Assembly (NCBI GenBank): GCA_016188495.1 | Contig: JACPHU010000002.1 | Location: forward strand, 111,466 to 175,465 | Origin: Candidatus Uhrbacteria bacterium | GTDB lineage: Bacteria > Patescibacteriota > Patescibacteriia > UBA9934 > GWF2-40-263 | Length of the DNA stretch: 64,000 nt | Reading direction: 5' to 3' | Shown: positions 24,930-54,892 of the stretch, piece by piece | How the letters are laid out: each line of letters starts with the position of its first letter | How positions within the stretch are numbered: position 1 is the stretch's first letter | Program-made: the position numbers and the translations under genes | The notes under the pieces: model-generated | Database searches by the model: none | Told to the model about the DNA's origin: nothing | The model's input: the letters and a program-made list of their open reading frames with translations, nothing else

Positions 24930-25001
24930 TGAGACTGTTACAAAACTAGCGATCTTGCCTGCCTACCGGTAGGTAGGTCTCATCGAGTTTTGTAACAGTC
25001 T
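24930..25001. repeat. Palindromic repeat element, copy C (short form): 19-bp outer inverted repeat flanking core CGATCTTGCC...TCTCATCG with internal palindrome CCTACCGGTAGG
   Basis: Left arm 'gagactgttacaaaactag' and right arm 'cgagttttgtaacagtctc' are complementary. Conserved sub-terminal 'aaaact.g cgatcttgcc' and 'tctcat cgagtttt' are shared with copies A, B and E. Confidence 0.7.
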
Positions 25002-25050
25002 CTCACGTAACAATCTCAAGATCCTATTTTTATGTTAAAATAGCTTTAAT

Positions 25051-25587
25051 ATGCAGCAAAATCTTCCAAAGTCCTGGATTTTTGTTTTTTTGGTGGTAAC
25101 GACACTAGTGATCGTCATTCTTCTGATTGGTCCAGAAAAACAAATTTCTAAGCAAAAACAAGTGGAACAGTCTCAGCAAACCACGGAACCATCCAGATCC
25201 ACTACGTTTGAATCTATGTTGGAAGCTGCGGACAATGCTATTTATGTTGAGAACCAAAAAACGGGAGCATCCTCTGTACAGATAGGATTCGTTGTCCTTT
25301 CCCGTCCGGGCTATGTCGTTGTTTTTAATGATCAGCAAGGAATTCCTGGATCTGTGATCGGTCAATCCGATCTCCTCTCCTCAGGCGGAGAACATTTTGC
25401 TATACCAGTGAGCAATCCTCTTCAAGAAGGGGAAGTCTACTATGCCATACTCTATCACGACGACGGAGATGAGCGATTGCGTTTAGAGAAAGACGTGCAG
25501 GTCACTGATAGTCAAAATTCAGTCATTCTGATGAATTTTATTGCCTCGCAAGAGGCAGAACCTGAACAAGGAGCCATTGCTCCTTGA
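25051..25587 (+). CDS. Membrane-anchored hypothetical protein
   Basis: N-terminal TM 'IFVFLVVTTLVIVILLIG'; no recognised domain. Confidence 0.45.
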   Translation: MQQNLPKSWIFVFLVVTTLVIVILLIGPEKQISKQKQVEQSQQTTEPSRSTTFESMLEAADNAIYVENQKTGASSVQIGFVVLSRPGYVVVFNDQQGIPGSVIGQSDLLSSGGEHFAIPVSNPLQEGEVYYAILYHDDGDERLRLEKDVQVTDSQNSVILMNFIASQEAEPEQGAIAP

Positions 25588-25671
25588 AGATTTCTTTCAT
25601 TTAGAGTATCTTCGGCAAAGGATTATCGCAGGTACGTGGTAATCTGTTGGTCGTTCTTTGGAGACAGTAAC

Positions 25672-26106
25672 ATGTCCAGACTCAGATCTCATCAGGTAGG
25701 CCATGGTTCCGGTTCTCCAGCAACCACGAGCAAGAAGGATGCTTACAGCGCTTTTCAATCGCTCAGTGGTCGATTCAAAGCAGGTGGAGAGATTCATGGG
25801 GAAGAGCTGTTTGAGTTGGCGGTTTCTACCACAAGGAATTTTTCCGGCATGGATAGTACCCAGGTTCTGGAAATTTTCCATTTTCTTTTGAGTTTTCGGG
25901 TACGAATGGATGAGAGAGATATCCGTTCTTTTTCCAACAAGATCGAGAAGATCGCCAGATACCTGTCTCCTAAGATTTCACGAAACGGGGAGATGATTCT
26001 CAACCCATTTCTCGGCCGTCTGACGACAGGGCATCAGCTTCGTACCACGATCAACAGAGAAGCCACTCGCGTCGGGCAGATCGAGGCGGCGCTCGTCTTC
26101 GTCTGA
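25672..26106 (+). CDS. Hypothetical protein (higher-GC segment; strand choice uncertain, an 94-aa ORF overlaps on the minus strand)
   Basis: ORF only; elevated GC relative to flanks. Confidence 0.3.
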   Translation: MSRLRSHQVGHGSGSPATTSKKDAYSAFQSLSGRFKAGGEIHGEELFELAVSTTRNFSGMDSTQVLEIFHFLLSFRVRMDERDIRSFSNKIEKIARYLSPKISRNGEMILNPFLGRLTTGHQLRTTINREATRVGQIEAALVFV

Positions 26107-26182
26107 TCTTTTTTCCCTCTTGCTTGAGTCCAGCTATTGAGTTGGGCTCTTTTTTGTTTTTGTGTGTTAAAATGAACTGACT

Positions 26183-26929
26183 ATGCATACCAAAAAAAAT
26201 ACGTTACAGAAAGAATTCATTGAGTCTGACTCTGAAGGACATCTTTTTTGTCGACTTCCTCTTGCTCCGGATGAAAATCGTTCACAACCTCCAAAGCTTT
26301 ATGAAATCACCTGGCGCATTTTTCGTATCATGGCCGAGTTTGTAGAGGGATTTCAATTTCTTTCTGAATCAAGTCGAGAAGTCACGTTTTTCGGATCAGC
26401 CAGACTCAAAAAGAGTCATCGTTGGTATAAGGAGGCGGAGAAACTCGGCAAGATGCTGGCTCAGTGCGGATTCACCGTTATTACAGGAGGAGGCCCTGGA
26501 ATTATGGAGGCAGGGAATAAAGGGGCAAAAGAAGGTGGAGGGGTTTCTATTGGATTAAATATCCAGTTACCAACAGAACAGCGTATTAATCCTTACGTCA
26601 CCAAAGGTCGAGGGTTTCATTATTTTTTTACCAGAAAAGTCATGTTGGCCGCTTCGGCTCAAGCCTACGTTTATTTCCCTGGCGGATTTGGAACCCTCGA
26701 TGAGTTTTTTGAGATCGTGACGCTTATCCAAACAGGTAAAATGCAACGTATTCCCGTTGTGTGCGTAGGGAAAGAATTTTGGTCAGGTTTGTTTGAGTGG
26801 TCACAAAAAGTTCAGCTTGAAAAACTCAAAGTTATTTCCGCAAAAGATATGGATCTTTTTCATGTGGTAGATACAGCTCAGGAGGCCTTTGATATTATCA
26901 CCACTTCTCCCGATCGATCTTTTTTTTAA
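26183..26929 (+). CDS. LOG-family (cytokinin riboside 5'-monophosphate phosphoribohydrolase-like) protein
   Basis: 'GGGPGIMEAGNKGA' and 'PGGFGTLDEFFE' LOG motifs. Confidence 0.85.
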   Translation: MHTKKNTLQKEFIESDSEGHLFCRLPLAPDENRSQPPKLYEITWRIFRIMAEFVEGFQFLSESSREVTFFGSARLKKSHRWYKEAEKLGKMLAQCGFTVITGGGPGIMEAGNKGAKEGGGVSIGLNIQLPTEQRINPYVTKGRGFHYFFTRKVMLAASAQAYVYFPGGFGTLDEFFEIVTLIQTGKMQRIPVVCVGKEFWSGLFEWSQKVQLEKLKVISAKDMDLFHVVDTAQEAFDIITTSPDRSFF

Positions 26930-26932
26930 GAT

Positions 26933-28279
26933 ATGGAACCATTGCGAGTCGCACAAAAAGCTCAAGCATGGGTTGTGGATGTGAACATGGGATATGGTCA
27001 TTCCCGTGCTGCTTACGCATTAAAAGATCTCTCCGCCGGCAGTATTGTTTCTGCAAACGATTATTCGGGTATTCCTCCACAGGATCGAACCTACTGGCAG
27101 GAGAGTCGGGAATTGTACGAATGGATTTCTCGAATGAAACCTATTCCCGTGGTTGGAAATTTTTTGTTTGAGACCATGGATCATTGGCAGCAAATTCCTT
27201 CCTTTTATCCTCGACGAGATTTATCTAAACCCAATACTCAGCTTAAACAAATTTATCGTCTGATTCACAAAGGTTTTGGAAAGCATTTTATCCAGACACT
27301 TTCTCGAACTCCTCTTCCGTTTGTCACAACGTTTTTTATCCCCGCTTTTTTTGCTGATTATTTTGATTATCCAGGCGACATTTGGTGTGTGACCACTGAT
27401 GCGGATATTTCTCGTGCATGGGCGCCGATGGATCCACAGCGCAGTCGGATTAAGTATTTGGCCAGCAATGGCCGTGTGGTAGAACGCCTTAAGCTTTATG
27501 GAGTGCGTGATGATCATATTTTTCTTTCCGGATTTCCTCTTCCAAAAGAACTCGTTGGTGGCCCAACAGGCGAAGTATTAAAAGATTTGCTGACAGAACG
27601 TCTGTGCAATTTAGATCCGAAGGGGATTTTTCATGCTCGTTATGAACGCACTTTGCGAGCACAACTAGGCCCTGCCCGCTGTAAACGAACAACCGCTGCT
27701 CATCCGCTTACTCTTACTTATAGCGTTGGAGGAGCAGGAGCCCAGCGAGCGTTAGGAGTAAAAATTCTTCAAAGTTTGAAGTCGCGGATTGCTCGTCACG
27801 AAATTCGTTTCAATTTATTACCCGGATATCGAAAAGATGCCGCTGTGTACTATCGAAACGCGGTAAAGGAGATCGGATTAAAAAAAGAGTTAGGTAGCTG
27901 GGTCGTCGTTCCTGAACATACCTCGCGAGCTGATTATTTTTCTGATTTTACAGAAATTCTCAAAACAACAGATATTCTTTGGACAAAACCAAGCGAGCTT
28001 TCTTTTTATTGCGGATTGGGAATAGCGATGATCATGGCTCCCCCTATCGGTTCTCAGGAAGATTTTAATCGTGTCTGGCTTAGTTATGTTGGAGGAGGAG
28101 TTTCCCAAAACGATCCTCGATATACCAGTGAATGGCTCTTTGATTGGATCGATTCAGGAGGCGTCGCGCGCATGGCGTGGAATGGGTACATTGAAGCTCC
28201 AACGCACGGAACGTATCGTATCGAAGATTTGGTTTTGGGAAGAAAAAGCGAACTTCATTCATTACCGCTTATTGTGTAA
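26933..28279 (+). CDS. Putative GT-B glycosyltransferase (MGDG-synthase/GT28-like)
   Basis: N-terminal 'GYGHSRAAYAL' resembles GxGHxxAAxA. C-terminal 'ILWTKPSELSFYCGLGIAMIMAP' resembles GT-B C-domain. Confidence 0.45.
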   Translation: MEPLRVAQKAQAWVVDVNMGYGHSRAAYALKDLSAGSIVSANDYSGIPPQDRTYWQESRELYEWISRMKPIPVVGNFLFETMDHWQQIPSFYPRRDLSKPNTQLKQIYRLIHKGFGKHFIQTLSRTPLPFVTTFFIPAFFADYFDYPGDIWCVTTDADISRAWAPMDPQRSRIKYLASNGRVVERLKLYGVRDDHIFLSGFPLPKELVGGPTGEVLKDLLTERLCNLDPKGIFHARYERTLRAQLGPARCKRTTAAHPLTLTYSVGGAGAQRALGVKILQSLKSRIARHEIRFNLLPGYRKDAAVYYRNAVKEIGLKKELGSWVVVPEHTSRADYFSDFTEILKTTDILWTKPSELSFYCGLGIAMIMAPPIGSQEDFNRVWLSYVGGGVSQNDPRYTSEWLFDWIDSGGVARMAWNGYIEAPTHGTYRIEDLVLGRKSELHSLPLIV

Positions 28280-28281
28280 CT

Positions 28282-29862
28282 ATGGACAAAGCGTTAGAAC
28301 ATTTGTTGAACACGATTGTTCAAACAAGGCATCAGACAGAGCTTTCTGAAAAAGAGGAAGATGTCATTAAAGTCTCAGACACCGTTTCTGCGGCTGCCTC
28401 TGTTTATGAAACCGTTCGTAATACACTGGAATACGACGAAGAACATTTGCTTCGACGAAATGCGATCCGTCGTATTTTAAAACGCTGTCTTGTCGAGGGC
28501 TCTCAAGCCCAAATGGCCGGAACGCTTGTTAAGGAATTAATCTGGGCAAGATATCTTCCCAATGGTCGGGTCCCCACCAAAGTTATTGAAAAAGTTGAGT
28601 TGATTTTAGAAAAATACAGCGTCCTTTTTGGAATACTCGAATCGGAAACATCGCAAGGACAGCAAGGGTACGATTGGTTGCTTGATGCGGCTTCCGTAGA
28701 AATGGAATATTTTCTTGTTCCTCCTTCGATCGATGAGGCTCTTGCCAGTTTCGCGTATCAGGAGTTGAAGCGTCGTGTGGACTGGCAGACCCATTCTTTT
28801 CCAGAGGCAGACCGCGACCTCCAACTCTACATCGCCATTCATCGAAGTGTCCTGAATTCAAATCCCGCCACGCTTCGTTATCGTCTCTTAACTCTCTATT
28901 ATCCACATTGGCGCAAAGCAAAAAAAGACGATCTTGTTGTGAAGGAAATCATGACGAATTTGCCCAAAGTGATTGATTCCATCGAAAAGCAAATAGGGCA
29001 TTCTGCACAAGATGACGTTTACCGTTTCATTCGTCGGCATGCCATTATTTTTCACTTGCTCTGCGATATCGCCAAAGATAATCCAGAAGCCTTTACGACT
29101 TCGCTCGTGAGCGGGGATATGGAAAGCATCGATGCAGCCATCACCAAGGCTGCGGAGGCACGTTATGCTCTTTTTAGAAGCAGACTAACAAGAACCGTGA
29201 TGCGAGCCGCATTCTTTTTGTTGCTCACCAAATCCATTCTCGCGTTTTTAGTGGAATATCCTTATGAGGTGTTTATTCTTCAGACGACCGATTTTTTTCC
29301 TTTAACCGTTAATATTCTTTTCCCCCCAATTCTTCTTTCTTTGATTAGTTTAACGATTCGTATCCCCAAATCTGAAAATACCGCTCGGATTCTGGAAGAA
29401 CTTCATGCCATTTTTGGGACAGGAGATGAATTCTCTATTGTATTTAAACGTCGTCGAGCCTGGGGAGGGGTTCTTTGGTGGATATTCAACGGACTCTATC
29501 TCTTGATTCTCGTGTTAATGATTTGGCTGATTGTTTCCACACTCAGAACGTTTCATTTTAACGGATTGTCCATATTCTTTTTTATCTTCTTTCTTTCTTT
29601 AGTTGCGTATTTTGGTTTGCGTATCCGTAATACCCGTCGTGAGTTGGTAGTGATCGATATGTCTCGAGGGATGTTTGGTACGCTTATGGACGTTCTCTTT
29701 CTTCCTATCATTCGAGCTGGTCGTTGGGTTGCCTTGCGGGCGCCGCGAGTGAATATTTTTCTGTTCTTTTTTGATTTTATTATTGAAGCGCCCTTTAAGA
29801 CGGCTATTGGTATTGTGGAAAGTTGGTTGGGGTTCTTACGAGAAAAACGAGAAGAGATTTAG
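28282..29862 (+). CDS. Hypothetical protein with soluble N-terminal half and multi-TM C-terminal half
   Basis: ORF abuts the GT-B-like gene (3-nt gap), suggesting an operon partner. Confidence 0.5.
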   Translation: MDKALEHLLNTIVQTRHQTELSEKEEDVIKVSDTVSAAASVYETVRNTLEYDEEHLLRRNAIRRILKRCLVEGSQAQMAGTLVKELIWARYLPNGRVPTKVIEKVELILEKYSVLFGILESETSQGQQGYDWLLDAASVEMEYFLVPPSIDEALASFAYQELKRRVDWQTHSFPEADRDLQLYIAIHRSVLNSNPATLRYRLLTLYYPHWRKAKKDDLVVKEIMTNLPKVIDSIEKQIGHSAQDDVYRFIRRHAIIFHLLCDIAKDNPEAFTTSLVSGDMESIDAAITKAAEARYALFRSRLTRTVMRAAFFLLLTKSILAFLVEYPYEVFILQTTDFFPLTVNILFPPILLSLISLTIRIPKSENTARILEELHAIFGTGDEFSIVFKRRRAWGGVLWWIFNGLYLLILVLMIWLIVSTLRTFHFNGLSIFFFIFFLSLVAYFGLRIRNTRRELVVIDMSRGMFGTLMDVLFLPIIRAGRWVALRAPRVNIFLFFFDFIIEAPFKTAIGIVESWLGFLREKREEI

Positions 29863-29908
29863 GGAGGTACTTTTAGAGAGATTTCTCTCGACTTTATATT
29901 AAATAATC

Positions 29909-30904
29909 ATGCACGACCCTCGTCGTAAAAAGTTTTTTTCTCTTTTTTTAGGATCTCTGTTTCTTTTGGCTGTCGTTTTTTTTACCTATACGTTTTTGTG
30001 GATTCAGACAGCATCCGATACAGAGCCTGTTTTTGGGATTACCTATTCATGGGTTTATGCTCGCCAGCTAGGATTAGATCCGCGCCAGACCTATCACGAT
30101 CTGATTGAAGATCTACAGGTTCGTTCCGTCCGGCTTCCTCTCTACTGGTCTGAGATTGAGCCAAAACAAGGAGAGTTTGATTGGACTCTTCCCGATGAGT
30201 TTATCCAGTTTTCTCAGGATTATGAGATAAAACTCACTGTGGTCATTGGGGCTAAGGTTCCTCGTTGGCCTGAATGTTTTATTCCTGATTGGGCAGAACA
30301 ATTAGATCCTTCCCAGAAGAGACAAGCATTAGATTCTTTTTTGGAAAAAGTTGTTCAACGCTACAAGCGTTTTCCAACCATCATCCGCTGGCAGATAGAA
30401 AACGAACCTTTTTTCCCTTTTGGGGAATGTCCGAATCTTTCCCAAACGGAATTTCAAGAACACGTGAATCTTGTGCGTTCGTTTGATGATCGGCCTATTC
30501 AAGTCTCTGTCAGTGGTGAACTTGGATCTTGGTCAGAGGCTGCGCGCTCGGCAGACATTCTTGGAATTTCCTTATATCGTCAAACATGGAATCCTTTTTT
30601 TGGTTATATAATCTATCCGCTGACTCCTGATTATTATTTTTTTCGTTCGCATCTGATACAAAAATTCGTCCCTCAGGTGATCATTTCCGAGTTACAAGCT
30701 GAGCCTTGGTTTTCAGATTCCATTCAATCACGATCTCTCACTGACTGGTATAAGATGTTTACGGTTGAAATGTTTGAACACAATGTTCAGTTTGCTCGCA
30801 AGACCGGATTGGGAGAAGTCTATTTATGGGGAGCTGAATGGTGGTATAGACTGAAAGAAAGCGGGGATGATCGTTTATGGGAAGCTGCCAGATCTCTTTT
30901 TTAA
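29909..30904 (+). CDS. Membrane-anchored TIM-barrel glycoside hydrolase (GH5-like)
   Basis: N-terminal TM. 'RWQIENEPF' resembles the GH5 catalytic NEP motif. Confidence 0.55.
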   Translation: MHDPRRKKFFSLFLGSLFLLAVVFFTYTFLWIQTASDTEPVFGITYSWVYARQLGLDPRQTYHDLIEDLQVRSVRLPLYWSEIEPKQGEFDWTLPDEFIQFSQDYEIKLTVVIGAKVPRWPECFIPDWAEQLDPSQKRQALDSFLEKVVQRYKRFPTIIRWQIENEPFFPFGECPNLSQTEFQEHVNLVRSFDDRPIQVSVSGELGSWSEAARSADILGISLYRQTWNPFFGYIIYPLTPDYYFFRSHLIQKFVPQVIISELQAEPWFSDSIQSRSLTDWYKMFTVEMFEHNVQFARKTGLGEVYLWGAEWWYRLKESGDDRLWEAARSLF

Positions 30905-30916
30905 ATATCGATCTTT

Positions 30917-32335
30917 ATGAAAAAAAATACGTCGTTTGATGTGATTGTCCTGGGGTCTGGTTCTGCAGGGTTTTCTGCTGTTCAAGCAGCTCATGCGCAG
31001 GGCGCCTCCGTCTGTTTAATTGAAAAGGATCGCCTAGGAGGAGACTGTCCTAATAAAGCATGTATCCCATCTAAGGCGTTATTGAAAGCTGCCACATTTT
31101 ATCGCACGCTCAATCGGGCTCGAGATTTTGGTATAGAACTTGGCGGAAAATCTTTTCAGTTTAAAAAAATCATGCAGTATCGACAAACCATTGTAGACAC
31201 GATTACCGGGGGAGGAGATCGTGGCGATCGATACGTTGAGATTCTGAATCAGATGGATATCGACAGGCGTTTTGGACAGGCTTCTTTTTTAGACTCTCAC
31301 ACCATAGAAATAAATGGTGAGCAGCTTTATGGCAAAACAGTTGTCATTGCCACAGGAACCGTGGATTTCATCCCTCCTATTGTTGGATTAGAAGACGTTC
31401 GTTTTTGGACATGGACAGAGGCGTTGGAAACAAAAAACCAACCTAAGTCATTAGCGATTATCGGTGCAGGTCCTGTTGGGTGCGAGCTGGCAACATTTTA
31501 TGCCTCTTTTGGTACACGCATTCTTCTATTACAGAGTCATCCCGTCATATTAGAGAGAGAAGATAGGGAAATAAGTCTTTTGGCGGAAGGTGTGCTCAAA
31601 CAAATGGGCGTGGAGGTTGTGGTTAATGCGCAGATAGAGGAGATCGTTCACGCCAGAGGAGGTGTTGCCGGGCTTTCTGTCAGTTCTGAAGAGTTTTCTT
31701 CTAAGATGCACGCGGTTGAACGCATTGTTGTCACAACAGGAAAACGAGCAAATATAGAAGGATTGAATGTATCGTTGGCAGGAGTTCATTTGGATAAAAA
31801 GGGTTACGTAAAAACAAAAAAGGATCAATCTACGAACATTCCGCACATTTTCGCTGCCGGAGATGTGGACGGGGGATTGCAGTTTACTCATACTGCTCAT
31901 CAAGAGGGTTGGGTCGCGGGTTTTAATGCCGCCCTTTTTGTTAAGCCCAAAAAAGGGAAGTCACTTCAGACCGACCAGCGAGTTGTTCCGCGCGTGACGT
32001 TTTTAGCATCGGAAGTCGCTTCTGTGGGAATGACTCAGGAAGAGGTTATCCATCAATATGGAAAGGTGTTGGTCGGAAGATATACTATGGCTTCTCTTGG
32101 ACGTGCCCTGACCGATGGTGTAACGCAAGGCATGATTAAACTCGTGGCTCATCCTAAATCACGTAAGCTCTTAGGTGCCCATGTGATCGGGGAACGGGCA
32201 GGGGAAATGATCCATGAGGCAGCATTGGCAATCTTTTTGAATGCAACGATAGATAAAATAGCTCAAATGGTTCACGCGTTTCCAACGTTTTCGGAAGGTC
32301 TTAAGGCAGCGGCCTCGGCGGCACAAATAGAATGA
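30917..32335 (+). CDS. FAD-dependent pyridine nucleotide-disulfide oxidoreductase (dihydrolipoyl dehydrogenase/mercuric reductase class)
   Basis: 'VIVLGSGSAG' FAD motif. Redox-active disulfide 'GGDCPNKACIPSK'. Confidence 0.8.
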   Translation: MKKNTSFDVIVLGSGSAGFSAVQAAHAQGASVCLIEKDRLGGDCPNKACIPSKALLKAATFYRTLNRARDFGIELGGKSFQFKKIMQYRQTIVDTITGGGDRGDRYVEILNQMDIDRRFGQASFLDSHTIEINGEQLYGKTVVIATGTVDFIPPIVGLEDVRFWTWTEALETKNQPKSLAIIGAGPVGCELATFYASFGTRILLLQSHPVILEREDREISLLAEGVLKQMGVEVVVNAQIEEIVHARGGVAGLSVSSEEFSSKMHAVERIVVTTGKRANIEGLNVSLAGVHLDKKGYVKTKKDQSTNIPHIFAAGDVDGGLQFTHTAHQEGWVAGFNAALFVKPKKGKSLQTDQRVVPRVTFLASEVASVGMTQEEVIHQYGKVLVGRYTMASLGRALTDGVTQGMIKLVAHPKSRKLLGAHVIGERAGEMIHEAALAIFLNATIDKIAQMVHAFPTFSEGLKAAASAAQIE

Positions 32336-41259: not shown

Positions 41260-41704
41260 GTCTTCATTTATTCAACGAATGGTTCGATGGCGATTCTTGA
41301 TCGTACTGAATATTTTTGTCATTGTTTTTCTGGGAATTTCTTTTGGCCGGGAGATTATTCGTAATCATTCTATCGGGTCAGAAATTGCCCGGCTGCAAGA
41401 ACAGGCTGATTCGCTTGCGGCTAAAAATATAGAAATTTCTGAGTTAAAGACAGCTATTCAAACAGAATCTTATATTGAACGTGAAGCACGTTTAAAACTT
41501 GGAATGAAAAAACCTGGAGAAACCGTCTACGTCATCCAAGAACAAACCCAAGATCAATCTCAGACAGCTACAACAGATGATCCAAATGATCCATTAGGAT
41601 TGGTTATTCAAGATTCGGAGGATGCTGAGGCAGTTGCGAATCCAACCAAGTGGTGGTATTACTTCTTTGATAAACAATCCTATAATACGTTTAGGGATCT
41701 CTAA
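41246..41704 (+). CDS. ftsB: Septum formation initiator (FtsB/DivIC-like) cell division protein
   Basis: TM + coiled coil + 'YIEREARLKLGMKKPGETVYVI' signature. Confidence 0.65.
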   Translation: MPIPKSSFIQRMVRWRFLIVLNIFVIVFLGISFGREIIRNHSIGSEIARLQEQADSLAAKNIEISELKTAIQTESYIEREARLKLGMKKPGETVYVIQEQTQDQSQTATTDDPNDPLGLVIQDSEDAEAVANPTKWWYYFFDKQSYNTFRDL

Positions 41705-41852
41705 AAATGGCGTCTTTTCGTTTCATGGGCGCCCGCCGACCCCACTCTCCCTATGGGGAATAGGGTTCGCGGGGCTCGACCCGCCCGAACGAACGTTCGA
41801 CGGTCGGGCGGGCAGCCCATTCAACGAAAATCCATCCATTTTTAGAGATCCT
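41693..41852. repeat. Palindromic repeat element, copy D (divergent right end), between ftsB-like and PPIase genes
   Basis: Outer IR 'agggatctctaaaaatgg' / 'ccatttttagagatcc(t)t'. Core shares 'tttcatgggcgcccgcc' and '...gttcgacggtcgggcgggcagcccattcaa' with copies A and E. Confidence 0.7.
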
Positions 41853-41865
41853 TCATTAGTAAATA

Positions 41866-42854: not shown

Positions 42855-42963
42855 AAACCCATTTTAAATTTATAAAGGAAAAGTGCTACTGATGAGGCAC
42901 TTTTTCTCTTGATCTTCCTGATAGCTCCTGTTATTATTTTCGGGTCTTAGAATATATCTTCAT

Positions 42964-43105
42964 GCTGTGAATGATGAAACTCGATGAGATTGTCTTGAAT
43001 GGGCTGCCCGCCCGACCGTCGAACGACTGAACAGGATTGATCGTCGTTCAGTCGGGCGGGCGGGCGCCCGAAAACCTCAAGATCGCGAGTTTCATCATTC
43101 ACAGC
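42964..43105. repeat. Palindromic repeat element, copy E (inverted orientation), ending 4 nt before tRNA-Thr
   Basis: Outer IR 'gctgtgaatgatgaaactcg' / 'cgagtttcatcattcacagc'. Core is the reverse-complement arrangement of copies A/D ('atgagattgtcttgaatgggctg...gggcgggcgcccgaaaacctcaagatcg'). Confidence 0.75.
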
Positions 43106-43109: not shown

Positions 43110-43185
43110 GCCACTGTAGCTCAGTTGGTAGAGCAATGCTTTCGTAAAGCAGAGGTCGGCGGTTCAAATCCGCCCAGTGGCTCCA
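43110..43185 (+). tRNA. tRNA-Thr (anticodon CGT), CCA encoded
   Basis: Manual cloverleaf: acceptor GCCACTG/CAGTGGC, D-stem GCTC/GAGC, anticodon stem ATGCT/AGCAG, loop TTCGTAA, T-stem GGCGG/CCGCC. Confidence 0.85.
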
Positions 43186-45836: not shown

Positions 45837-45845
45837 AGGAGGAGT

Positions 45846-47170: not shown

Positions 47171-47183
47171 AGAGACTTAATAA

Positions 47184-47207
47184 GTTCGAATCCCTGTCTA
47201 TACACCA
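47184..47207 (+). repeat. Orphan tRNA 3'-end fragment (GTTCGAATCCCTGTC...ACCA) in inverted orientation relative to tRNA-Gln
   Basis: 15/15 nt identical to the T-arm/acceptor 3' strand of the adjacent tRNA-Gln, followed by 'tatacacca'. There is no upstream sequence able to complete a cloverleaf. Confidence 0.55.
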
Positions 47208-47243
47208 AAGAAAAAACAACCGTCAATGACGATTGTTTTTTCT

Positions 47244-47317
47244 TGGTTCCCGGACAGGGATTCGAACCCCGATACCCAGGACCAAAACCTGGTGTCCTGC
47301 CTTTAGACGATCCGGGA
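47244..47317 (-). tRNA. tRNA-Gln (anticodon TTG), CCA encoded
   Basis: Manual fold: acceptor TCCCGGA/TCCGGGA, anticodon stem CCAGG/CCTGG with loop TTTTGGT, T-stem CGGGG/CCCTG (one G-U). Confidence 0.8.
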
Positions 47318-47328
47318 GCGTAGTGAGC

Positions 47329-47357: not shown

Positions 47358-47368
47358 CGAACGGAGCG

Positions 47369-47490
47369 ACCGGATCTGGCTCGAAGAGACAGATCCGGGA
47401 TGTAAACGTATTCCTAGGATCTAACGTTCATCAGATCCGGGATGTAAGCTCATTGCTAAATGGCGAGATCTGTCTCTCTAGACAGATCCG
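47369..47490. promoter_or_regulatory. Array of five CAGATCCG(G)/CCGGATCTG motifs in both orientations (iteron-like)
   Basis: Copies at about 47370 (inverted), 47388, 47431, 47465 (inverted) and 47481. They form two additional 9-bp-stem inverted repeats. Confidence 0.5.
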
Positions 47491-47586
47491 TGAGCTTTCA
47501 CACTCACTGCATGTATCTTTGACCACGAAATAGTACCTAATCTCCCTTTTTCTTTCAAGAGCAGGAGATTAATTCTTTTTCCCTTG

Positions 47587-48420: not shown

Positions 48421-48502
48421 AAAGGGAAGTCTTTTTTTCAACAGTTTTTTGTGTGACCGTATTGGTTGGCATAAGAAGTTATTTATGGCACCATAGAGAC
48501 GT

Positions 48503-48997
48503 ATGTCAAAACCCATTTGTTTATTTATCGGTCGTTTCCAGCCATACCATATTGGACACCATATGGTCATTAAAGGAATGACAAAGGTGTGCCGCAAAGT
48601 GATTATTGGAATTGGAAGCTCAGATAAATCGGGAAGTAAACTCAATCCTTATACAGCCCAAGAACGTAAAGAAATGATTCAACAAGCCCTTCAAGATGAG
48701 GATATTATTCCGCTTTTTGATGTGGAGTTTATCAATCTTCCAGATCATCCGGATGACGACGTGTGGGCACAACAGGTTCTTGAGCATGCGAAACAGGTAG
48801 ATATGATTTGGACGGGGGATCCAGCAGTGAAAAAGTGTTTCGAAGGAAAAATTGAGATTAAGGAGATAAAAGAGGTTCCAGGAATCAGTTCCACCAGTAT
48901 CCGTGAAATGATCAAAAAAGGAGATTTAGACTGGAAGACAAAAGTTCCCGCTTCCGTTGTCAAAGCGGTACAAGATTTGGGAACGGATCGAATGTAA
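48503..48997 (+). CDS. Nicotinamide-nucleotide adenylyltransferase (archaeal/NadM-type cytidylyltransferase fold)
   Basis: 'IGRFQPYHIGHH' matches GRFQPxHxGH. Confidence 0.8.
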   Translation: MSKPICLFIGRFQPYHIGHHMVIKGMTKVCRKVIIGIGSSDKSGSKLNPYTAQERKEMIQQALQDEDIIPLFDVEFINLPDHPDDDVWAQQVLEHAKQVDMIWTGDPAVKKCFEGKIEIKEIKEVPGISSTSIREMIKKGDLDWKTKVPASVVKAVQDLGTDRM

Positions 48998-49072
48998 CCT
49001 ATTCAACTTGACAGAATTCCTTATTTTTTGCAGAATTTGATTAATTAATTCTTTTTAGAAGGAAAATATCTT

Positions 49073-49312
49073 GTGATTAACGTAAAGCGCCGCAAAGGTG
49101 AAAGTTTTGAAAGTTTGTATCGACGTTTTAGCCGTCGTATGCAACAAAGTGGAACGACTCTTGAAGCCAAGAAAAATCGTTTCCATGTCGACGAACCTAA
49201 TAAGACGAGACAAAAAAAGTCCGCTCTTCGCCGTTTGGCTGTACGTATCAAGCGCGAATATCTTATACGTGTTGGACAGCTTGACGAAACTCAAACGATT
49301 TCTCGTCACTAA
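49073..49312 (+). CDS. rpsU: 30S ribosomal protein S21 (GTG start)
   Basis: 'VKRRKGESFESLYRRFSRRMQQSG...' matches S21. SD 'AAGGAAAA' upstream. yqeY follows, a conserved pairing. Confidence 0.85.
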   Translation: MINVKRRKGESFESLYRRFSRRMQQSGTTLEAKKNRFHVDEPNKTRQKKSALRRLAVRIKREYLIRVGQLDETQTISRH

Positions 49313-49320
49313 ATATTTGT

Positions 49321-50076
49321 ATGACTCTGGCAGAAACCATTTCACAAAACATGAAGGTTGCCATGAAAGCCAAAGACAACGCAACGCTTTCCACGTTGCG
49401 TTTGTTGCTTTCTGCGATAAAAAATAAGCAGATCGATGTTGGCCATGTCTTATCTGACTCAGAGATTCAAGACGTCGTGAAAACTCAGGTAAAACAACTC
49501 AAGGATGCTGTTGACTCTTTTACTCAAGGAGGTCGTGAGGATATGGCTCAGGCTTCTGCAGCTGAAATTCAGGTGCTTGAACAATTTCTTCCTGCACAAA
49601 TGAGCGACGAAGAACTGACTCAAATTCTCAAGAGAGTGGTTGAATCCAGCGGAGCGCAAAGTAAAGCAGATATAGGAAAAGTGATGGGGTCTGCGATGCA
49701 GGCGGTTGCAGGACGTGCAGACGGATCGCGTGTAAAGACGATTGTCCAATCTCTTTTGCCTGTTCTTATCCTGGTTGTGTTTGGAGCGATGTCTGCCAAT
49801 CATGAGACGGTCGCTGCGATTCCTTTGTTGGACACATTAAGTAACGGGACTCAATATACCGAATTACTTTTACGATTATTTCGTGTCCTTGTCCTTTGGT
49901 TGGGAATTCCCGCTATTACCATGATTTTAACCGGAGGATTTGAATATACCACCGCTTCTTATCGGGATGAAGTTCATCATCATTCCTTGAGCAAATTGAC
50001 CTTCGGTGTTTTTGCTACATTGATTATCGCTGCTTTATTCGCCTTTTGTACCATTATTCTTCAACAAATTCAGTAA
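49321..50076 (+). CDS. yqeY: GatB/YqeY-domain protein with unusual C-terminal two-TM extension
   Basis: N-terminal about 150 aa match YqeY. C-terminal about 100 aa is hydrophobic. Confidence 0.65.
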   Translation: MTLAETISQNMKVAMKAKDNATLSTLRLLLSAIKNKQIDVGHVLSDSEIQDVVKTQVKQLKDAVDSFTQGGREDMAQASAAEIQVLEQFLPAQMSDEELTQILKRVVESSGAQSKADIGKVMGSAMQAVAGRADGSRVKTIVQSLLPVLILVVFGAMSANHETVAAIPLLDTLSNGTQYTELLLRLFRVLVLWLGIPAITMILTGGFEYTTASYRDEVHHHSLSKLTFGVFATLIIAALFAFCTIILQQIQ

Positions 50077-50077
50077 A

Positions 50078-50207
50078 GAGATCTCTCCAAAACTCGCGAC
50101 CTTCCCTTTCACGGGCGCCCGCCCTCCACACTCTCCCTATTGTGAATAGGGTTCGTATGGCTCAACAGCCCGTTCAAGGCAATCTCATCGAGTTTTGGAG
50201 AGATCTC
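50078..50207. repeat. Palindromic repeat element, copy A, immediately after the yqeY stop
   Basis: Outer IR 'gagatctctccaaaactcg' / 'cgagttttggagagatctc'. Core 'cgaccttccctttcacgggcgcccgcc...cccgttcaaggcaatctcat' contains the GGGCGCCC palindrome. Confidence 0.75.
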
Positions 50208-50288
50208 AATAGATTTTTGAAAAGACAAAAAACGGGGATTGTTCCCCGTTTTTTTAATCACGTATACTTTCTTATAAAATAGTTCTGT

Positions 50289-51293
50289 ATGGAAAAAAAG
50301 CTTGTTGCCAATAAGGCCGTCATCGTGAATCCTCAGGGGAAAATTTTGCTTGTTCGTGATGCGGGAAAATTTGATCATACACAGGCGTTGGGAAAATGGG
50401 ATTTTCCTGGTGGACGGATGGATGCGTTGGAATCTCCTCAAGAAGGATTGTTACGTGAACTGAAAGAAGAAGTAGGATTTGACCCTCATCAGGTTCACAT
50501 TCAACAGCCACTTCAGATTGGTTTTTGGGGGATGGGGGGCGATATTCAACAGAATCCAGTCGTGGGGATTTTTTATCTCGTCCGTTTGTTGGGGGAAGTC
50601 GAGATTGTGTTATCAGAGGAACATACGGAATTTTTTTGGTTTGATCCAAAACAGACGATTCCTAATGATGTGTGGCCTCGAGTATCTGAAGCGATAGAAG
50701 CGTATCGAAGACAAGAGGGGATTGCCGTGGCATCTGACGCACAGGTGAAAGGCTACCAAGGGTATGGTCTTATTCAGCTGTTTACAGGAAATGGAAAAGG
50801 GAAAACCACCGCGGCTTTAGGAGAAGTCTTACGTGCTGTTGGGGCTGGAAAAAAGGTAGGAATCGTCTTTTTTGATAAAGGGGGAGAGACTCATTATTTT
50901 GAACGTAAAATGATTGATCAGATAGAGGGGATTGATTACGTTGCCACGGGCCGCGATCGAATCGATCCGGTGACCGGACGATTTGATTTTTCTATTCAAG
51001 AAATTGATAAACAGGAAGGAAAACGAGGATTAGAAGAGATTCGTCGAATGTTTAAAGAAGGATGTGATTTGGTTGTGATGGACGAGATTAATTCAAGTGC
51101 AGATTTGGGCATTGTTTCTATCGAAGAGGTTTTGAGTGTTCTGGATGAAAAACCTAAACAAACAGAACTCATTATGACAGGGCGCAATGCTCCCGAAGCA
51201 TTCCTCACTCGTGCTCATCTTGTGACGGAAATGCGTTTGCGCAAGCATTATTTTTATTCAGGCGTAAAAGCACGCGAAGGGTTGGATTATTAG
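50289..51293 (+). CDS. Fusion protein: N-terminal Nudix hydrolase + C-terminal cob(I)alamin adenosyltransferase (CobO/BtuR-type)
   Basis: Nudix box 'GGRMDALESPQEGLLRELKEEVG'. P-loop 'FTGNGKGKTTAALG' typical of CobA/CobO. Confidence 0.75.
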   Translation: MEKKLVANKAVIVNPQGKILLVRDAGKFDHTQALGKWDFPGGRMDALESPQEGLLRELKEEVGFDPHQVHIQQPLQIGFWGMGGDIQQNPVVGIFYLVRLLGEVEIVLSEEHTEFFWFDPKQTIPNDVWPRVSEAIEAYRRQEGIAVASDAQVKGYQGYGLIQLFTGNGKGKTTAALGEVLRAVGAGKKVGIVFFDKGGETHYFERKMIDQIEGIDYVATGRDRIDPVTGRFDFSIQEIDKQEGKRGLEEIRRMFKEGCDLVVMDEINSSADLGIVSIEEVLSVLDEKPKQTELIMTGRNAPEAFLTRAHLVTEMRLRKHYFYSGVKAREGLDY

Positions 51294-51329
51294 AAAGCTG
51301 GGTATGTGAGGATGAATGTTAGACACTCG

Positions 51330-52595
51330 TTATTGTAATAACAACGTGGCTAATCCCAGAAAGAACAGAAATCCAAGGACATCGGTAGCAGTGGTAATAA
51401 AGATCGTGGCTGATGTGGCAGGATCTTTTCCTAATTTTTTCATCATGAGCGGAACGAGCGTTCCAAAAAAAGCAGAGACAACCAAATTAGTAATCATGGC
51501 CAGACCAAGAATCAAAGCAATAAGAACGTCATGGTTAAAGACCATAACAATCACCGCCACGATTAAGCCGTTAATCAGTCCGTTGGTAAATCCGGCAATC
51601 AGTTCTCGTTTAAGCGTTGGCCACGCGCTTTGCAGATCAATTTGATTCATGGCAATTCCACGGACAAGAACAGCGAGTGTCTGAGTTCCAGCATTTCCTC
51701 CCATTCCGGCAACAATAGGCATATAGACGGCGAGGAGCACGTATTTACTAATCGTATCTTGAAATAAGCTTACAATGGAAGCTGCAAAGAATGCTGTTCC
51801 AAGGTTGATCATGAGCCATTTGTATCGAAAACGAATTTTACTTGGCGCTGAATCAAGAACGGATTCTTCTTTGTCGATTCCTGCAAACTGATAAAGGGAA
51901 GAAGCTGTTTTGTCATCAAGATTCCTTAAGACGGAGTCAGCATAAATGATTCCCAACACATTGCCTTCCCGGCTCAAAACAGCGACTTTATTGTGTGACT
52001 GTTTTTTGAATGCTTGGAGCACTTCCTCTCGTGAGGCTTGGTGTCTGATGGTGGGTAGAGGTCGAACAAATGTTTTGATGGGATCGGTGGGGGAACCGAG
52101 CCCAAGTGCATGGCCAGGGAGCTGACCAATCAGTTTTCCCTGTCTCATGACAACTATGGTAGGGAGGCGTCCTGTTTTTTGTTCATGCGTTTTAAATCGT
52201 CTTGCGGCCTGTGCGATGGTATCCATTTCCTCTATTTGGATGTAATTGAGATTCATCAAACCTGCAGCGGTTTGGGGATCAAATTCAGAAAGAAAGGTGA
52301 TTTGTTCCTGGAAGGTTTTATTCAGGGCAGTGATTGCATTTTTTTGTTTGGATGTTGGAAGAAGTTGAACAAGATCTGCCGCCTGGTCAGGATCAAGGTG
52401 TTCAAGGATATCCGCGAGCTCATCCCGAGAAAGTTGTTTTAACAAATCTCGAGTCACGTCTTTGCTTAAACATAAGAGCACGTTCACTCGTTCATCGTGA
52501 GAGAGATTCAAAAAACGTTTGAGACGATCTTTAGGATGAAAGCTGATATCACGAACAGCTTCAGGGCATTGGATATTTGAAATGGGTTCAGACAT
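51330..52595 (-). CDS. mgtE: Magnesium transporter MgtE
   Basis: MgtE N-domain, CBS pair and C-terminal TM bundle. Start chosen at MSEP (the ORF-track TTG start at 52628 abuts a terminator). Confidence 0.75.
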   Translation of the reverse strand: MSEPISNIQCPEAVRDISFHPKDRLKRFLNLSHDERVNVLLCLSKDVTRDLLKQLSRDELADILEHLDPDQAADLVQLLPTSKQKNAITALNKTFQEQITFLSEFDPQTAAGLMNLNYIQIEEMDTIAQAARRFKTHEQKTGRLPTIVVMRQGKLIGQLPGHALGLGSPTDPIKTFVRPLPTIRHQASREEVLQAFKKQSHNKVAVLSREGNVLGIIYADSVLRNLDDKTASSLYQFAGIDKEESVLDSAPSKIRFRYKWLMINLGTAFFAASIVSLFQDTISKYVLLAVYMPIVAGMGGNAGTQTLAVLVRGIAMNQIDLQSAWPTLKRELIAGFTNGLINGLIVAVIVMVFNHDVLIALILGLAMITNLVVSAFFGTLVPLMMKKLGKDPATSATIFITTATDVLGFLFFLGLATLLLQ

Positions 52596-52632
52596 AAGCG
52601 TTAAAGAAATTATAATGTATTCAATCAAAACA

Positions 52633-52661
52633 AAAAACCTCGTACCAAGACGAGGTTTTTA
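52633..52661 (-). terminator. Terminator after the ASCH-like gene, just upstream of mgtE
   Basis: AAAACCTCG-taccaaga-CGAGGTTTT. Confidence 0.6.
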
Positions 52662-52667
52662 TATAGG

Positions 52668-52931
52668 TTACTCAAGAGAAATGATCTGTAAACCTTTTTC
52701 TTTGATTTGATCTTCAGGCCAAAAAAGTTTGTCTATCTGGAATGTTCCAACATACGTCACCATTTTTTCTATTACTCTTCCCGTATAGGATTGAGTTTCA
52801 GGATCCCATTCTTCCAACAGAAGAATATCACCCTCATTGATTTCAAAGTCATTCAAACGCAATTCGTATTTCTTTTTTCCAGAAAGGATCGCTTCAAAAT
52901 AAACAGGCCAGACCTTTTTCTTGATCGTCAT
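52668..52931 (-). CDS. Small PUA-like/ASCH (DUF3850-like) domain protein
   Basis: 'KVWPVYFEAILSGKKKYELR' pattern; 87 aa. Confidence 0.45.
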   Translation of the reverse strand: MTIKKKVWPVYFEAILSGKKKYELRLNDFEINEGDILLLEEWDPETQSYTGRVIEKMVTYVGTFQIDKLFWPEDQIKEKGLQIISLE

Positions 52932-53034
52932 AGAATAGATCGTTAAACAGATTTGATCCCTTTAATTTATCACCGTTCTTTTAAAAGAAAAATACCGACG
53001 AGTTCATCCTAGAGGGTAAGGATGGACCTGTCGG

Positions 53035-54150
53035 TTAAGGATTCTTTCTGTTTTTTTTCATGAGCTGACGAAGCCTCATGAATTGTTCTATTTCACCGGT
53101 CATTCCTGCTATTTGCGGAAAATCAGTAGGAACTTTTTGCGCAAATTGAGGCTCAAGTTCGATTAACGATACCCCAGAACCTTCAAGATCCAGCATGGGA
53201 TAGGCACCATAAGCAATACCAAACGATCCCTGCTGTGTTTGAACTTTGTAGTAAGTGAACGCTCTGGCAATATCATCGACCGTTTCATCCTCCTCTTCAT
53301 TCAGATTCGCTGTTATCCCGTGTCGCAGATGTTCCGGGAGAGTCGTACGATTCACGGAAATATTTTTAAAACCGCTTGATTCCAATATTTCCTTTATACC
53401 CTCGATCGTTTCTCGCTCCTGCTCTTTGATTCGTTCTGCGTTAAGTTGTCTGAAACATTCCCCGTGATAGAAACGTTCAACATATATATTCAGACGATCT
53501 TCAGATTGAACGACATGAGTTGTCGTCACTTCACGCCAACCCCTCTGCTCTGCCGTAGAGAGGTATTGTTTCACATTGGTATCTACCCATTGAGGATTCT
53601 GTATGTCTATTGGATCGCTCAGACTTCGGAGTGCATCTGTTTGAGCAGATAGCTCTTCTTTTACCTGAGAAAGAGTTTTTCCTGCAAACAAAGAGAGTTC
53701 CAACTCCTCAAAACATCCCTCTGCATCAACGTCGTGACAAGTGAGCAGATCCCAACCTTTGCCACATCTAGCACAGATCATGTGCGGAGGCGGCAGCGGA
53801 AAGCTGGGTGTCATCCCAATGATGGATTCATAGACGGAGTAAGGACTTTTTTCCAGCCGCATCTCTACATGTTCATTGAGAAACCTATCGAATTCTTCAT
53901 CGGTCATAACGTTGGGCATTGCGTTACGATCTGAACCGGTAAAGATCTTTCGATGAAGTCGAGAACACTGACCAAACTCATCAGAACGATATCGTCCAAG
54001 AAGAATGAACGGTTCTAAGGTGCCATATTCTTCACCCTCCGTTCCGTCAGATTTATAACCTCCTTTTTCGTTTCGCAAATGCATGAGAGCGTAGAAGGTT
54101 TCATAAGACGAAAGCTGTGAAGTGATACCTTCTTTCGTGTTGTGATTCAC
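53035..54150 (-). CDS. Hypothetical 371-aa protein with Cys/His cluster
   Basis: Motif 'HMICARCGKGWDLLTCHD'; no family recognised. Confidence 0.5.
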   Translation of the reverse strand: MNHNTKEGITSQLSSYETFYALMHLRNEKGGYKSDGTEGEEYGTLEPFILLGRYRSDEFGQCSRLHRKIFTGSDRNAMPNVMTDEEFDRFLNEHVEMRLEKSPYSVYESIIGMTPSFPLPPPHMICARCGKGWDLLTCHDVDAEGCFEELELSLFAGKTLSQVKEELSAQTDALRSLSDPIDIQNPQWVDTNVKQYLSTAEQRGWREVTTTHVVQSEDRLNIYVERFYHGECFRQLNAERIKEQERETIEGIKEILESSGFKNISVNRTTLPEHLRHGITANLNEEEDETVDDIARAFTYYKVQTQQGSFGIAYGAYPMLDLEGSGVSLIELEPQFAQKVPTDFPQIAGMTGEIEQFMRLRQLMKKNRKNP

Positions 54151-54266
54151 GTCTTCTCCTTTATTTCATTGGCTATGAACATGCAACACAATAAAGCATT
54201 ATCAAAAAATATTTAAAATGTCAATGGATTGTAAACAAAAATATCCTACTGTCCATATTTTCGGAC

Positions 54267-54614
54267 TCATTTTGTAAAACTATTTATCAGGCCGGATAAC
54301 AATCTCGAAACTTCTTCTAGATTTGTTTTCAAACCAGCTAGTTCTTTATTTTCGATTATTTTTTCATCACAAAGTAATTCCAATAAAGAGGCGCATTCAA
54401 AAACTGATCCACGAGAAATGACGTAAAAATTCTTACGGTCTTGTTTAGATAATTTACCTGTACCTTCCGCGATATTTATGACCATACTGACAGAGGCTCG
54501 ATAAAGTTGGTCTCGCAAAAAAGCATTGGTCTTTTTATCAATCAATATTTTCTGAATTTTTGCGTTTACTTCTTTGGCTTTTTGGTAAGCTACAAGTTTT
54601 TCAAAGTCGAACAT
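54267..54614 (-). CDS. Four-helix-bundle protein (TIGR02436-like, the family often found in rRNA intervening sequences)
   Basis: 'FEKLVAYQKAKEV...INIAEGTGK...SRGSVFECASLLEL' resembles that family. Confidence 0.6.
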   Translation of the reverse strand: MFDFEKLVAYQKAKEVNAKIQKILIDKKTNAFLRDQLYRASVSMVINIAEGTGKLSKQDRKNFYVISRGSVFECASLLELLCDEKIIENKELAGLKTNLEEVSRLLSGLINSFTK

Positions 54615-54684
54615 AATTCTGGAAAATACTAGATTCTAGAATCTAGAGTCTAGTAACTAGATTCTAGTCCCGCCAAAGGCGGGC

Positions 54685-54761
54685 TGGTCGGGCTAGTGGG
54701 ACTTGAACCCACGGCCTCCAGACCCCCAGCCTGGCGCTCTAGCCTACTGAGCTATAGCCCG
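54685..54761 (-). tRNA. tRNA-Pro (anticodon GGG), CCA encoded
   Basis: Manual fold: acceptor CGGGCTA/TAGCCCG, D-stem GCTC/GAGC, anticodon stem CCAGG/TCTGG with loop CTGGGGG (G37), T-stem GTGGG/CCCAC. Confidence 0.75.
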
Positions 54762-54765
54762 ATAT

Positions 54766-54892
54766 GAAGTTCTTCTAAAACTTGCGATCTTGCCTTTCAC
54801 GGGGCCCCATTGGCTTGTCGCCGTATGGCGAATACGGCTCTGTCGCCAATTTCCCCGTTCAAGGCAATCTCATCAAGTTTTAGAAGAACTTC
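54766..54892. repeat. Palindromic repeat element, copy B, starting 5 nt from the 5' end of tRNA-Pro
   Basis: Outer IR 'gaagttcttctaaaacttg' / 'caagttttagaagaacttc'. Core 'cgatcttgcctttcacggggcccc...ccccgttcaaggcaatctcat' contains the GGGGCCCC palindrome. Confidence 0.75.

Follow-up and report, generated by a model that had tools for sequence, protein, structure and literature searches.

We analysed a 64-kb stretch of DNA from Candidatus Uhrbacteria (the window, by which we mean the whole stretch) for a family of GC-rich hairpin repeats that lie at the boundaries of genes. The window contained six copies of this hairpin repeat, A to E and a diverged copy F. Together they make up ~1.3% of it, although genomes of the Candidate Phyla Radiation (CPR) are very small and tightly packed. 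An earlier sequence-only reading of the same DNA had described A to E as one family of five copies. All five were confirmed in place and as members of one family, but the count overlooked the sixth copy, F. Throughout, the sense strand of the element is the strand that reads CGATC...TCTCAT, the CGATC end is called L and the TCTCAT end R, and loci outside the window carry numbers from L001 onwards.

Copies in the window, their fold and their distribution

Copy A (130 nt, 50078–50207) reads from L to R on the plus strand and scored 87 bits with a covariance model, which was built on the terminal domain of the element and not on its full length. It begins 1 nt past the TAA of a YqeY-like open reading frame (ORF) and lies upstream of that gene's terminator, a terminator-like bidirectional hairpin at 50227–50254, which places A inside the 3' untranslated region (UTR). 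Copy B (127 nt, 54766–54892, plus strand) is the best preserved of the window copies (89 bits). Its L end lies 4 nt from the 5' end (54761) of the minus-strand tRNA-Pro(GGG) gene (54685–54761), and because the L end faces that 5' end, it is the complement of B that forms the tRNA leader. A promoter-like site (TTGATG-17-TATGAT, 54903–54931) was found on the minus strand, the strand of tRNA-Pro, with its second hexamer ending 10 nt upstream of B. Copy E (142 nt, 42964–43105; 64 bits) reads from L to R on the minus strand, and 4 nt (TCTT) separate its L end from the downstream plus-strand tRNA-Thr(CGU) gene (43110–43185), whose 5' leader contains E. It also lies downstream of a promoter-like site on the plus strand (TTGATC-17-TATTAT, TG-extended, 42909–42937). 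The close spacing that had been reported for both tRNA genes was therefore correct.

Copy C (72 nt, 24931–25002, plus strand; 50 bits) is an internally deleted mini copy in which the 19-bp stem and the CGATC/TCTCAT loop remain, together with a small capping hairpin. It is placed between rpmB (24627–24872, minus strand, start at 24872) and a DUF7282 gene (start at 25051). Copy D (160 nt, 41695–41854, plus strand) has an extra GC-rich inner hairpin module and is inserted in the overlap of ftsB/DivIC and surA. Copy F (173 nt, 6020–6192, plus strand) is diverged, with a different sub-terminal loop and interior, and was not recovered by the terminal-domain covariance model. Its left arm is the canonical AGACCGTTGAAAAACTCG, of which 18 nt recur unchanged in the arm of L011, a copy in another genome.

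Most of what had been claimed for the shared structure of the family was borne out by measurement. The arm pairs are perfectly self-complementary within each copy, over 17–20 bp in A, B, C and E and over 16 bp in D. The shared sub-terminal blocks occur beyond chance (right block, three matches against 0.00 expected; left block, seven against 1.1), and the GC-rich cores have interiors of 56–63% GC against 44% for the window.

The basic unit is ~130 nt long and forms a single rod-like imperfect hairpin, with sizes from 72 to 183 nt in copies with deletions or nested GC-rich modules. Its terminal stem (P1) has 19 bp, of which eleven variable pairs come first and are followed by AAAACUCG/CGAGUUUU. 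Directly inside P1 is a nearly invariant asymmetric internal loop, CGAUC opposite UCUCAU. It is followed by a 7-bp helix (P1b, UUGCCUU/AAGGCAA), a 2x2 loop (UC/UC), a 6-bp helix (P2, ACGGGC/GCCCGU) and two or three more helices up to the apical hairpin. The extra GC-rich hairpin module is present in the longer copies (D, E and several of the L loci). The short perfect palindromes that had been described for each copy (GGGCGCCC and similar) exist, but represent the 5' strand of helix P2 together with the next bases. The outer arms do differ between copies and yet pair, as had been described; however, they are not arbitrary. Most of them derive from the consensus GAGACYNTNNN-AAAACTCG and therefore belong to the element. 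Most arms can be derived in one to three steps from GAGACCKTTGC or GAGAYCTCTGC, and two further arm types (GCTGTGA... and GATTRTTTCC...) are recurrent.

The two strands of the element did not fold equally well. The two strands of copy B gave folding z-scores of -9.8 and -12.5. Across copies, the complement of the sense strand had a fold better by 8.7 kcal/mol on average, in 27 out of 29 copies (Wilcoxon p = 9e-6). In the complement, tandem G.A mismatches make up the 2x2 loops and the asymmetric loop is closed by a conserved G.U; at the corresponding places the sense strand has U/C mismatches and a C.A. The better-folding complement is the strand that is carried in the leaders of tRNA precursors.

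The SurA/PpiC-like protein encoded in the window is 100% identical to an NCBI protein from a Candidatus Uhrbacteria metagenome-assembled genome, where it lies on a 190-kb contig. Beyond the window, ~27 further copies were found in other Uhrbacteria/Patescibacteria assemblies of 42–62% GC, giving ~33 distinct copies overall. An exact search with the right block (one genome per species) returned 11 true copies, all in metagenome-assembled genomes (MAGs) of Uhrbacteria or unclassified Patescibacteria. The same search gave three chance matches inside genes of other phyla. The left block, searched independently against metagenome contigs, gave nine more loci. The host loci have GC contents from ~40% to 62%. 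The terminal-domain covariance model recovered all copies from the exact searches together with further diverged copies. Three pattern scans of viral contigs showed 0 or chance matches only, with no element by the covariance model, and BLAST of the canonical copy against plasmids and phages gave no match. The sequence-only reading had matched the repeats to no named ribozyme, and a scan of the window with Rfam 15 at the gathering threshold matched four tRNAs only. When both strands of copy A were scanned permissively, Rfam gave a single spurious match, to SymR (19.8 bits; gathering score 61). Literature searches found no account of such repeats in Patescibacteria.

Two minor observations were made on possible decayed or distant copies. 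Degenerate mini copies occur in tandem just downstream of a full copy at L020:577-700 and L022:1039-1160. One mini-copy junction, CTCATCAAGTTT-CGA-AAACTTGATGGCGATC, has the R-end motif head-to-head with the L-end motif, and these mini copies may be clusters of decayed elements or the relic of an R–L junction. At L045:6731-6830 the covariance model gave a weak match (17.7 bits) to a hairpin of ~100 nt with arms TTCGATTGGATCTC/GAGATCCAATCGGAA. Its apical hairpin CGTAGTGGATTTAGGTCTACTG resembles that of several family members and the neighbouring protein is only 52% identical; this hairpin may be a distant relative of the family.

Covariation, empty sites and flanking repeats

To measure covariation of the arms we used an ungapped terminal-domain alignment (A3) of 21 copies, with shuffled partners (500 shuffles) and slid partners as controls. 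Standard pairs occupied 95.8% of cells, compared with 81.5% for shuffled partners and 33–47% for slid partners. Two-sided changes were present in 21 of the 34 pairs and amounted to 96 cells against a shuffled mean of 24.5. None of the 500 shuffles matched any observed pairing measure. The compensatory covariation of the arms that the sequence-only reading had proposed is thus real and strong and, as the arms covary, the hairpin is maintained.

Compensated changes were seen well inside the variable arms too. The inner helix UUGCC/GGCAA is UCAAC/GUUGA in L003b, UUGCGG/CCGCAA in L003a and in an extra copy in L024, and UUUCG/CGAAA in D and L019a. Helix P2 (ACGGGC/GCCCGU) is replaced by AUGGGG/CCCCAU in other copies, and the conserved core of P1 is also compensated, by AAAUGAG/CUCAUUU in L028 and by AAAACUGG/CCAGUUUU in the second copy of L005. 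The TCTCAT loop strand was retained even where the stem core had changed (L028, L005b and L019a). This loop strand and the stem length of 19 ± 1 bp are the fixed features of the family, which is a clean natural case of helices that go on pairing through sequence turnover. Close copies already differ in this way: L006 and L007, from the same MAG, have roughly nine differing positions, four of which are two compensated pairs, and L005 and L010 differ by one compensated pair. Transversions occur among the compensated pairs.

The element inserts into DNA in trans, leaving a probable duplication of ~5 bp. The sequence-only reading had judged the repeats to be a selected hairpin rather than terminal inverted repeats recognised by a transposase, and this judgement did not hold, given relatives with empty sites, duplications of ~5 bp in younger copies and consensus termini (GAGAC...AAAACTCG). 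The comparison of orthologous sites in related genomes, which it had suggested, showed differences in presence or absence at the D, E and B sites and at the site of a further copy, G, among relatives with 80–89% protein identity.

The D site is empty in L024, in L027 and in the relatives that encode P0006 and P0038. In relatives with 88–55% identical SurA, ftsB/DivIC overlaps the surA start by 8–11 nt and the element is absent. In the window D follows ...ACGTTTAG and precedes ATTAG, and it replaces the last FtsB codons and supplies a new ftsB stop codon. The flanks of D are TTTAG (41690–41694) and ATTAG (41855–41859). The earlier claim that A and D sit directly after stop codons is accurate for A but not for D, in which the stop of the ftsB/DivIC-like gene is inside the left arm. 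E is absent from the closest relative, L024, where ...ATATCTTCAT runs directly into GCCACTG of tRNA-Thr. The 56 nt of upstream flank in L024 are identical to the window, so that the promoter region upstream of E is unchanged in a relative without E. In the more distant L027, tRNA-Thr is preceded at 3 nt by a copy of the same orientation whose arms are quite different. Copy G lies 1 nt past the surA stop codon and before the terminator in L024, L025 and L026, and is absent from the window and from L027.

At the B site, L044 (neighbouring protein 89% identical) has tRNA-Pro and then, after 3 nt, a different copy with E-like arms. The 11-mer ATATGAAGTTC is retained on the right of the L044 element; in the window it corresponds to the 4-nt spacer plus the first 7 nt of the left arm of B, and the sequence that follows it in L044 is homologous to the right flank in the window. 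The two sites therefore differ by B without 7 nt of one arm. This would follow from an asymmetric loss of B in L044 or from an outer stem of B that was built in part on a pre-existing flank.

Flanking direct repeats of at least 4 nt were called by script at eight out of 28 copies, compared with 1% of cross-paired flanks (p ~4e-10). One of the eight (L019a) was a boundary artefact, leaving seven out of 27 copies. The repeats are TAAAC, ACACA, AGCGA and four of 4 nt, with ATACT at L006 recognised by eye; they measure 4–5 bp, or 6 bp with a sliding boundary. All copies with flanking repeats carry GAGAC or GAGGC termini. The window copies other than D showed no flanking repeat and several have degenerate loops or inner-helix mismatches, so we read the copies in the window as for the most part old and no longer mobile.

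The same element, including its arms, was found in unrelated flanks in L016 and L021, and the arms therefore travel with the element. We also considered whether the copy-specific arms are copied from the insertion site. As a general rule this was rejected, since the match of arms to their own flanks (4.64 nt) was close to that with the flanks of other copies (4.51 nt) and L016 and L021 share arms; B compared with L044 is the exception.

Position, orientation and transcription

In at least 18 copies the L end is flush with a stop codon or with the end of a tRNA, at a distance of 0–12 nt, compared with 0 copies for the R end. The L end abuts the stop codon of a same-strand upstream gene in A, D, G, L001, L006, L011, L012, L017 and L021, and by eye in L003c and L005. 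In L005 and L006 the insertion is between the first and second bases of the stop codon, and the GA of the element restores TGA. In seven copies the L end is 1–4 nt from the 5' end of an opposite-strand tRNA gene, namely Thr (window and L027), Pro (window and L044), Lys (L002 and L023) and Leu (L019), so the association with tRNA 5' ends that had been noticed for two copies is real. Two further copies have the L end at tRNA 3' ends (L004 and L005). The R end was never less than 97 nt from a gene 3' end and never flush with a tRNA.

The sequence-only reading had placed B and C upstream of a same-strand gene. However, rpmB and tRNA-Pro are on the minus strand, and the orientation actually follows the neighbouring gene, towards which the CGATC end is turned. 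This strict rule, with the repeated oriented association with tRNA 5' ends, is a distinguishing feature of the family. The repeats insert at gene ends and alter them, and in the case of D the insertion rewrites the C-terminus of FtsB.

Several simple readings of the ends of the element were tried and rejected. Internal stop codons do not account for the orientation rule, because both ends read alike for 19 nt and beyond that it is the R side, and not the L side, that carries stops. An outward promoter in the R end was also rejected, as the would-be -10 falls in the variable arm and is hence not conserved. After stop codons the mRNA would carry the sense strand, with A and G lying between the stop codon and a separate terminator. 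The element was not accepted as an intrinsic terminator, since A and G precede separate canonical terminators 20–30 nt further on and the tails after the stem are not consistently U-rich.

One unrelated stretch of the window has a similar placement. At 15718–15883 a 166-nt hairpin-bounded stretch of 40% GC has 18-bp arms (TAGGACTTTCTCACTTGG / CCAATTGAGAAAGTCCTA) with one mismatch. The first three bases of its arm are the TAG stop of the ORF at 14725–15720, flush with the stop like the main family, and it occurs once in the window.

Explanations for the family and other features of the window

Our preferred reading, held with a little more than even confidence, is that the family is a non-autonomous mobile DNA element, a rod-like hairpin of the type of miniature inverted-repeat transposable elements (MITEs) or REPINs, hairpins related to repetitive extragenic palindromic (REP) sequences, and that it is specific to Candidatus Uhrbacteria and close Patescibacteria. 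Among the candidates that the sequence-only reading had listed, the mobile MITE/REP-type hairpin is accordingly the one that fared best. Recognition or processing of such an element would require the folded single-stranded form, through the invariant loop fixed 19 bp from the ends. Recognition of a single strand would explain why the helices pair despite sequence drift and why the loop and the 19-bp stem are fixed. Insertions would survive at, or be targeted to, gene boundaries with the CGATC end against the gene. Copies would then be co-transcribed with their neighbours, with the sense strand in 3' UTRs after stop codons and the better-folding complement in tRNA 5' leaders, from which RNase P would release it.

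Bacterial MITEs include the Correia elements of Neisseria, the ERIC/IRU elements of enterobacteria and RUP. Like these, the hairpin family consists of small elements without coding capacity that have terminal inverted repeats and, at some copies, apparent short target duplications. Its copies are 72–183 nt long with 19-bp repeats, and number six in 64 kb and ~27 elsewhere. Also like MITEs, it has many dispersed intergenic copies that differ between strains, with presence and absence at orthologous sites (D, E, G and B), and that are predicted to be co-transcribed with neighbours as hairpin RNA. Unlike in MITEs, its terminal repeats vary within one genome yet stay complementary, and the whole element is a covarying rod. 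It also differs from them in its strict orientation at gene boundaries and tRNA 5' ends, in having no known parent insertion sequence (IS) and in its reduced CPR host genome.

Two other types of known element were compared and rejected. Integron attC sites are alike in having imperfect inverted repeats of variable sequence, in being active as a folded single strand and in taking their strand choice from unpaired bases. In contrast, the present elements have no R/L box consensus (GTTRRRY), have termini GAGAC...GTCTC, form no cassette arrays, have no integrase nearby and are dispersed among housekeeping genes and tRNAs. The IS200/IS605-derived PATE has sub-terminal hairpins, no terminal inverted repeats and no duplication, while the present element forms one rod, has 19-bp repeats at its ends and is accompanied by duplications.

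A number of results weigh against the preferred reading. Neither a transposase gene nor an autonomous partner was found in the ~400 kb of fetched sequence, and none of the 35 ORFs scanned in the window and L003 was a transposase, integrase or reverse transcriptase. Nor was there a long coding version with the same ends, as every L half-site in the fetched DNA pairs with a nearby R half-site. A likeness of the arm GAGACTGTTGCAAA to the inverted repeat of IS26/IS6 was discarded, because there was no IS6-family match at E = 10 and the likeness falls in the variable part of one copy. The termini vary among the copies of one genome, which a sequence-specific DDE transposase binding these ends would not usually allow. 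Duplications were seen at no more than about a quarter of the copies, and at none of the tRNA-adjacent ones, whose arms are non-consensus. The indel between B and L044, which leaves 7 nt of one arm, resembles asymmetric REPIN excision more than cut-and-paste. One-sided changes through G-U wobble amounted to five cells, against the 96 two-sided cells given above, and their rarity could point to DNA-level copying between the arms instead of selection. The pattern of covariation fits strong selection on a Watson–Crick stem and arm-to-arm copying alike.

A further reading has the ends of the element set by geometry and not by sequence. An enzyme would read the CGATC/TCTCAT loop on the folded single strand, cut at a fixed 19 bp from it and insert the element one way round at gene boundaries, within or beside stop codons and at 1–4 nt from the 5' ends of tRNAs. 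Copies in tRNA leaders would be expressed from the tRNA promoters and freed by RNase P as a discrete structured RNA that could act as a transposition intermediate or cofactor. We regard this reading as speculative and rather improbable; if true, the element would be guided by structure and targeted to boundaries, in contrast to the IS-derived MITEs and the REPINs known so far.

The alternative that survived best, although we consider it unlikely, is a REPIN-type system in which a RayT-like Y1 (HUH) transposase would mobilise the hairpins as single-stranded DNA. Such an enzyme would read the hairpin of one strand through a conserved stem irregularity, as the E. coli TnpA-REP does with the REP bulge. 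The family and REPINs are alike as non-coding extragenic single long hairpins of ~100 nt with a stem irregularity. REPINs also show compensatory changes across the hairpin and asymmetric excision products (PMC3116915), as in the compensated stems here and the asymmetric indel at the B site. REP activity needs the conserved stem irregularity and is specific for one strand, and a GTAG 5' of the palindrome is a defining feature of REP (PMC8266576). Our family has an invariant loop and one strand with the better fold. However, no GTAG was conserved 5' of the palindrome in our family, in which the 5' flanks are not conserved and the termini are GAGAC, and the conserved part of the hairpin is the sub-terminal internal loop and not the ends. 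The target-site duplications also stand against this alternative. HUH transposition (IS200/IS605, REP) is not known to make target duplications, and the 4–5 bp flanking direct repeats at seven of 27 copies would not be its product.

The distribution of RayT-like genes bears on this alternative in both directions. RayT-like proteins of ~285 aa (PF01797) are very common in Uhrbacteria/Patescibacteria, with 7926 matches at E<1e-20, some of them named RayT by JGI. In L045, a distant relative, a gene for a 286-aa PF01797 protein (Y1, IS200/RayT-like; L045:629-1572) lies between 49-nt inverted repeats. In L048 a RayT-like gene (L048:9920-10953; PF01797, ~285 aa) has two REP-like 22-mers per side in inverted orientation. 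Given thousands of RayT-like homologues with their own REP-like repeats, REP/RAYT-type systems seem common in the phylum. However, the repeats around these two genes are unrelated to the hairpin family and the covariance model finds nothing there. A tblastn search for RayT gave none in the window or in any element-carrying locus, and no RayT flanked by the family was seen. Compared with these known systems, the family differs from REPINs in having duplications and no GTAG, and from textbook MITEs in that no parent IS was found in ~400 kb. The enzyme, if found, could reveal how hairpin elements choose gene boundaries and whether the RayT-like transposases that abound in the phylum have a wider substrate range.

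A second alternative, which we doubt more strongly, is that the family is primarily a functional structured RNA, either a tRNA-leader RNA released by RNase P or an element for RNA processing or stability, with mobility merely its means of spread. The seven copies 1–4 nt upstream of tRNA 5' ends would fit this explanation, being in one orientation at Thr, Pro, Lys and Leu genes of several genomes, as would the promoter-like sites upstream of E and B. The leader strand, with its tandem G.A loops and conserved G.U, is ~9 kcal/mol more stable, and the tRNA-adjacent copies keep perfect stems without duplications or consensus termini, which suggests that pairing is maintained in place. However, about half of the copies follow stop codons in the opposite orientation, with the other strand transcribed, and sites are empty in close relatives without visible replacement. 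G-U intermediates, which are usual in RNA families, are nearly absent, and there was no Rfam match for either strand. As readings of the conserved loop, the hammerhead core, K-turn and box C/D were each compared by eye with the consensus, and none fits.

The weakest alternative, a selfish palindrome of unselected structure whose arm complementarity is kept by DNA-level correction (template switching in replication or repair within the hairpin), agrees with the nearly complete restriction of changes to two-sided Watson–Crick pairs, transversion pairs included, and with the compensated pairs that already separate near-identical copies of one genome (two in L006/L007 and one in L005/L010), but we judge it very improbable, because the same process should erase the internal loops, which nearly every copy has retained, each time with the same strand asymmetry, and because the stem length is constant at 19 ± 1 bp.

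The remaining observations concern other features of the window and one related contig. In that CPR contig (L047:4270-4440), palindromic repeats of a different family, GTCATTGCGAGG(A)GCGAAGCGACGAAGCAATC, form inverted pairs upstream of a GIY-YIG gene. At 47185–47207 on the plus strand of the window, a 23-nt fragment resembling a tRNA 3' end (GTTCGAATCCCTGTCTATACACCA) lies where no tRNA was called. The convergent tRNA-Gln gene (47244–47317, minus strand) has a closely similar 3' end, with a bidirectional terminator-like hairpin between the two (47208–47244), and the fragment could be the remnant of an integration site. A gene of the '23S rRNA intervening sequence protein' family (PF05635, 54267–54614) adjoins tRNA-Pro, and there is no rRNA gene in the window. 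The segment from 58000 to 64000 has a GC content of 48–55% compared with ~42–44% elsewhere in the window and contains no rRNA; its genes include NMT1-like, VWA-domain, GNAT and nucleoside deoxyribosyltransferase-like genes.

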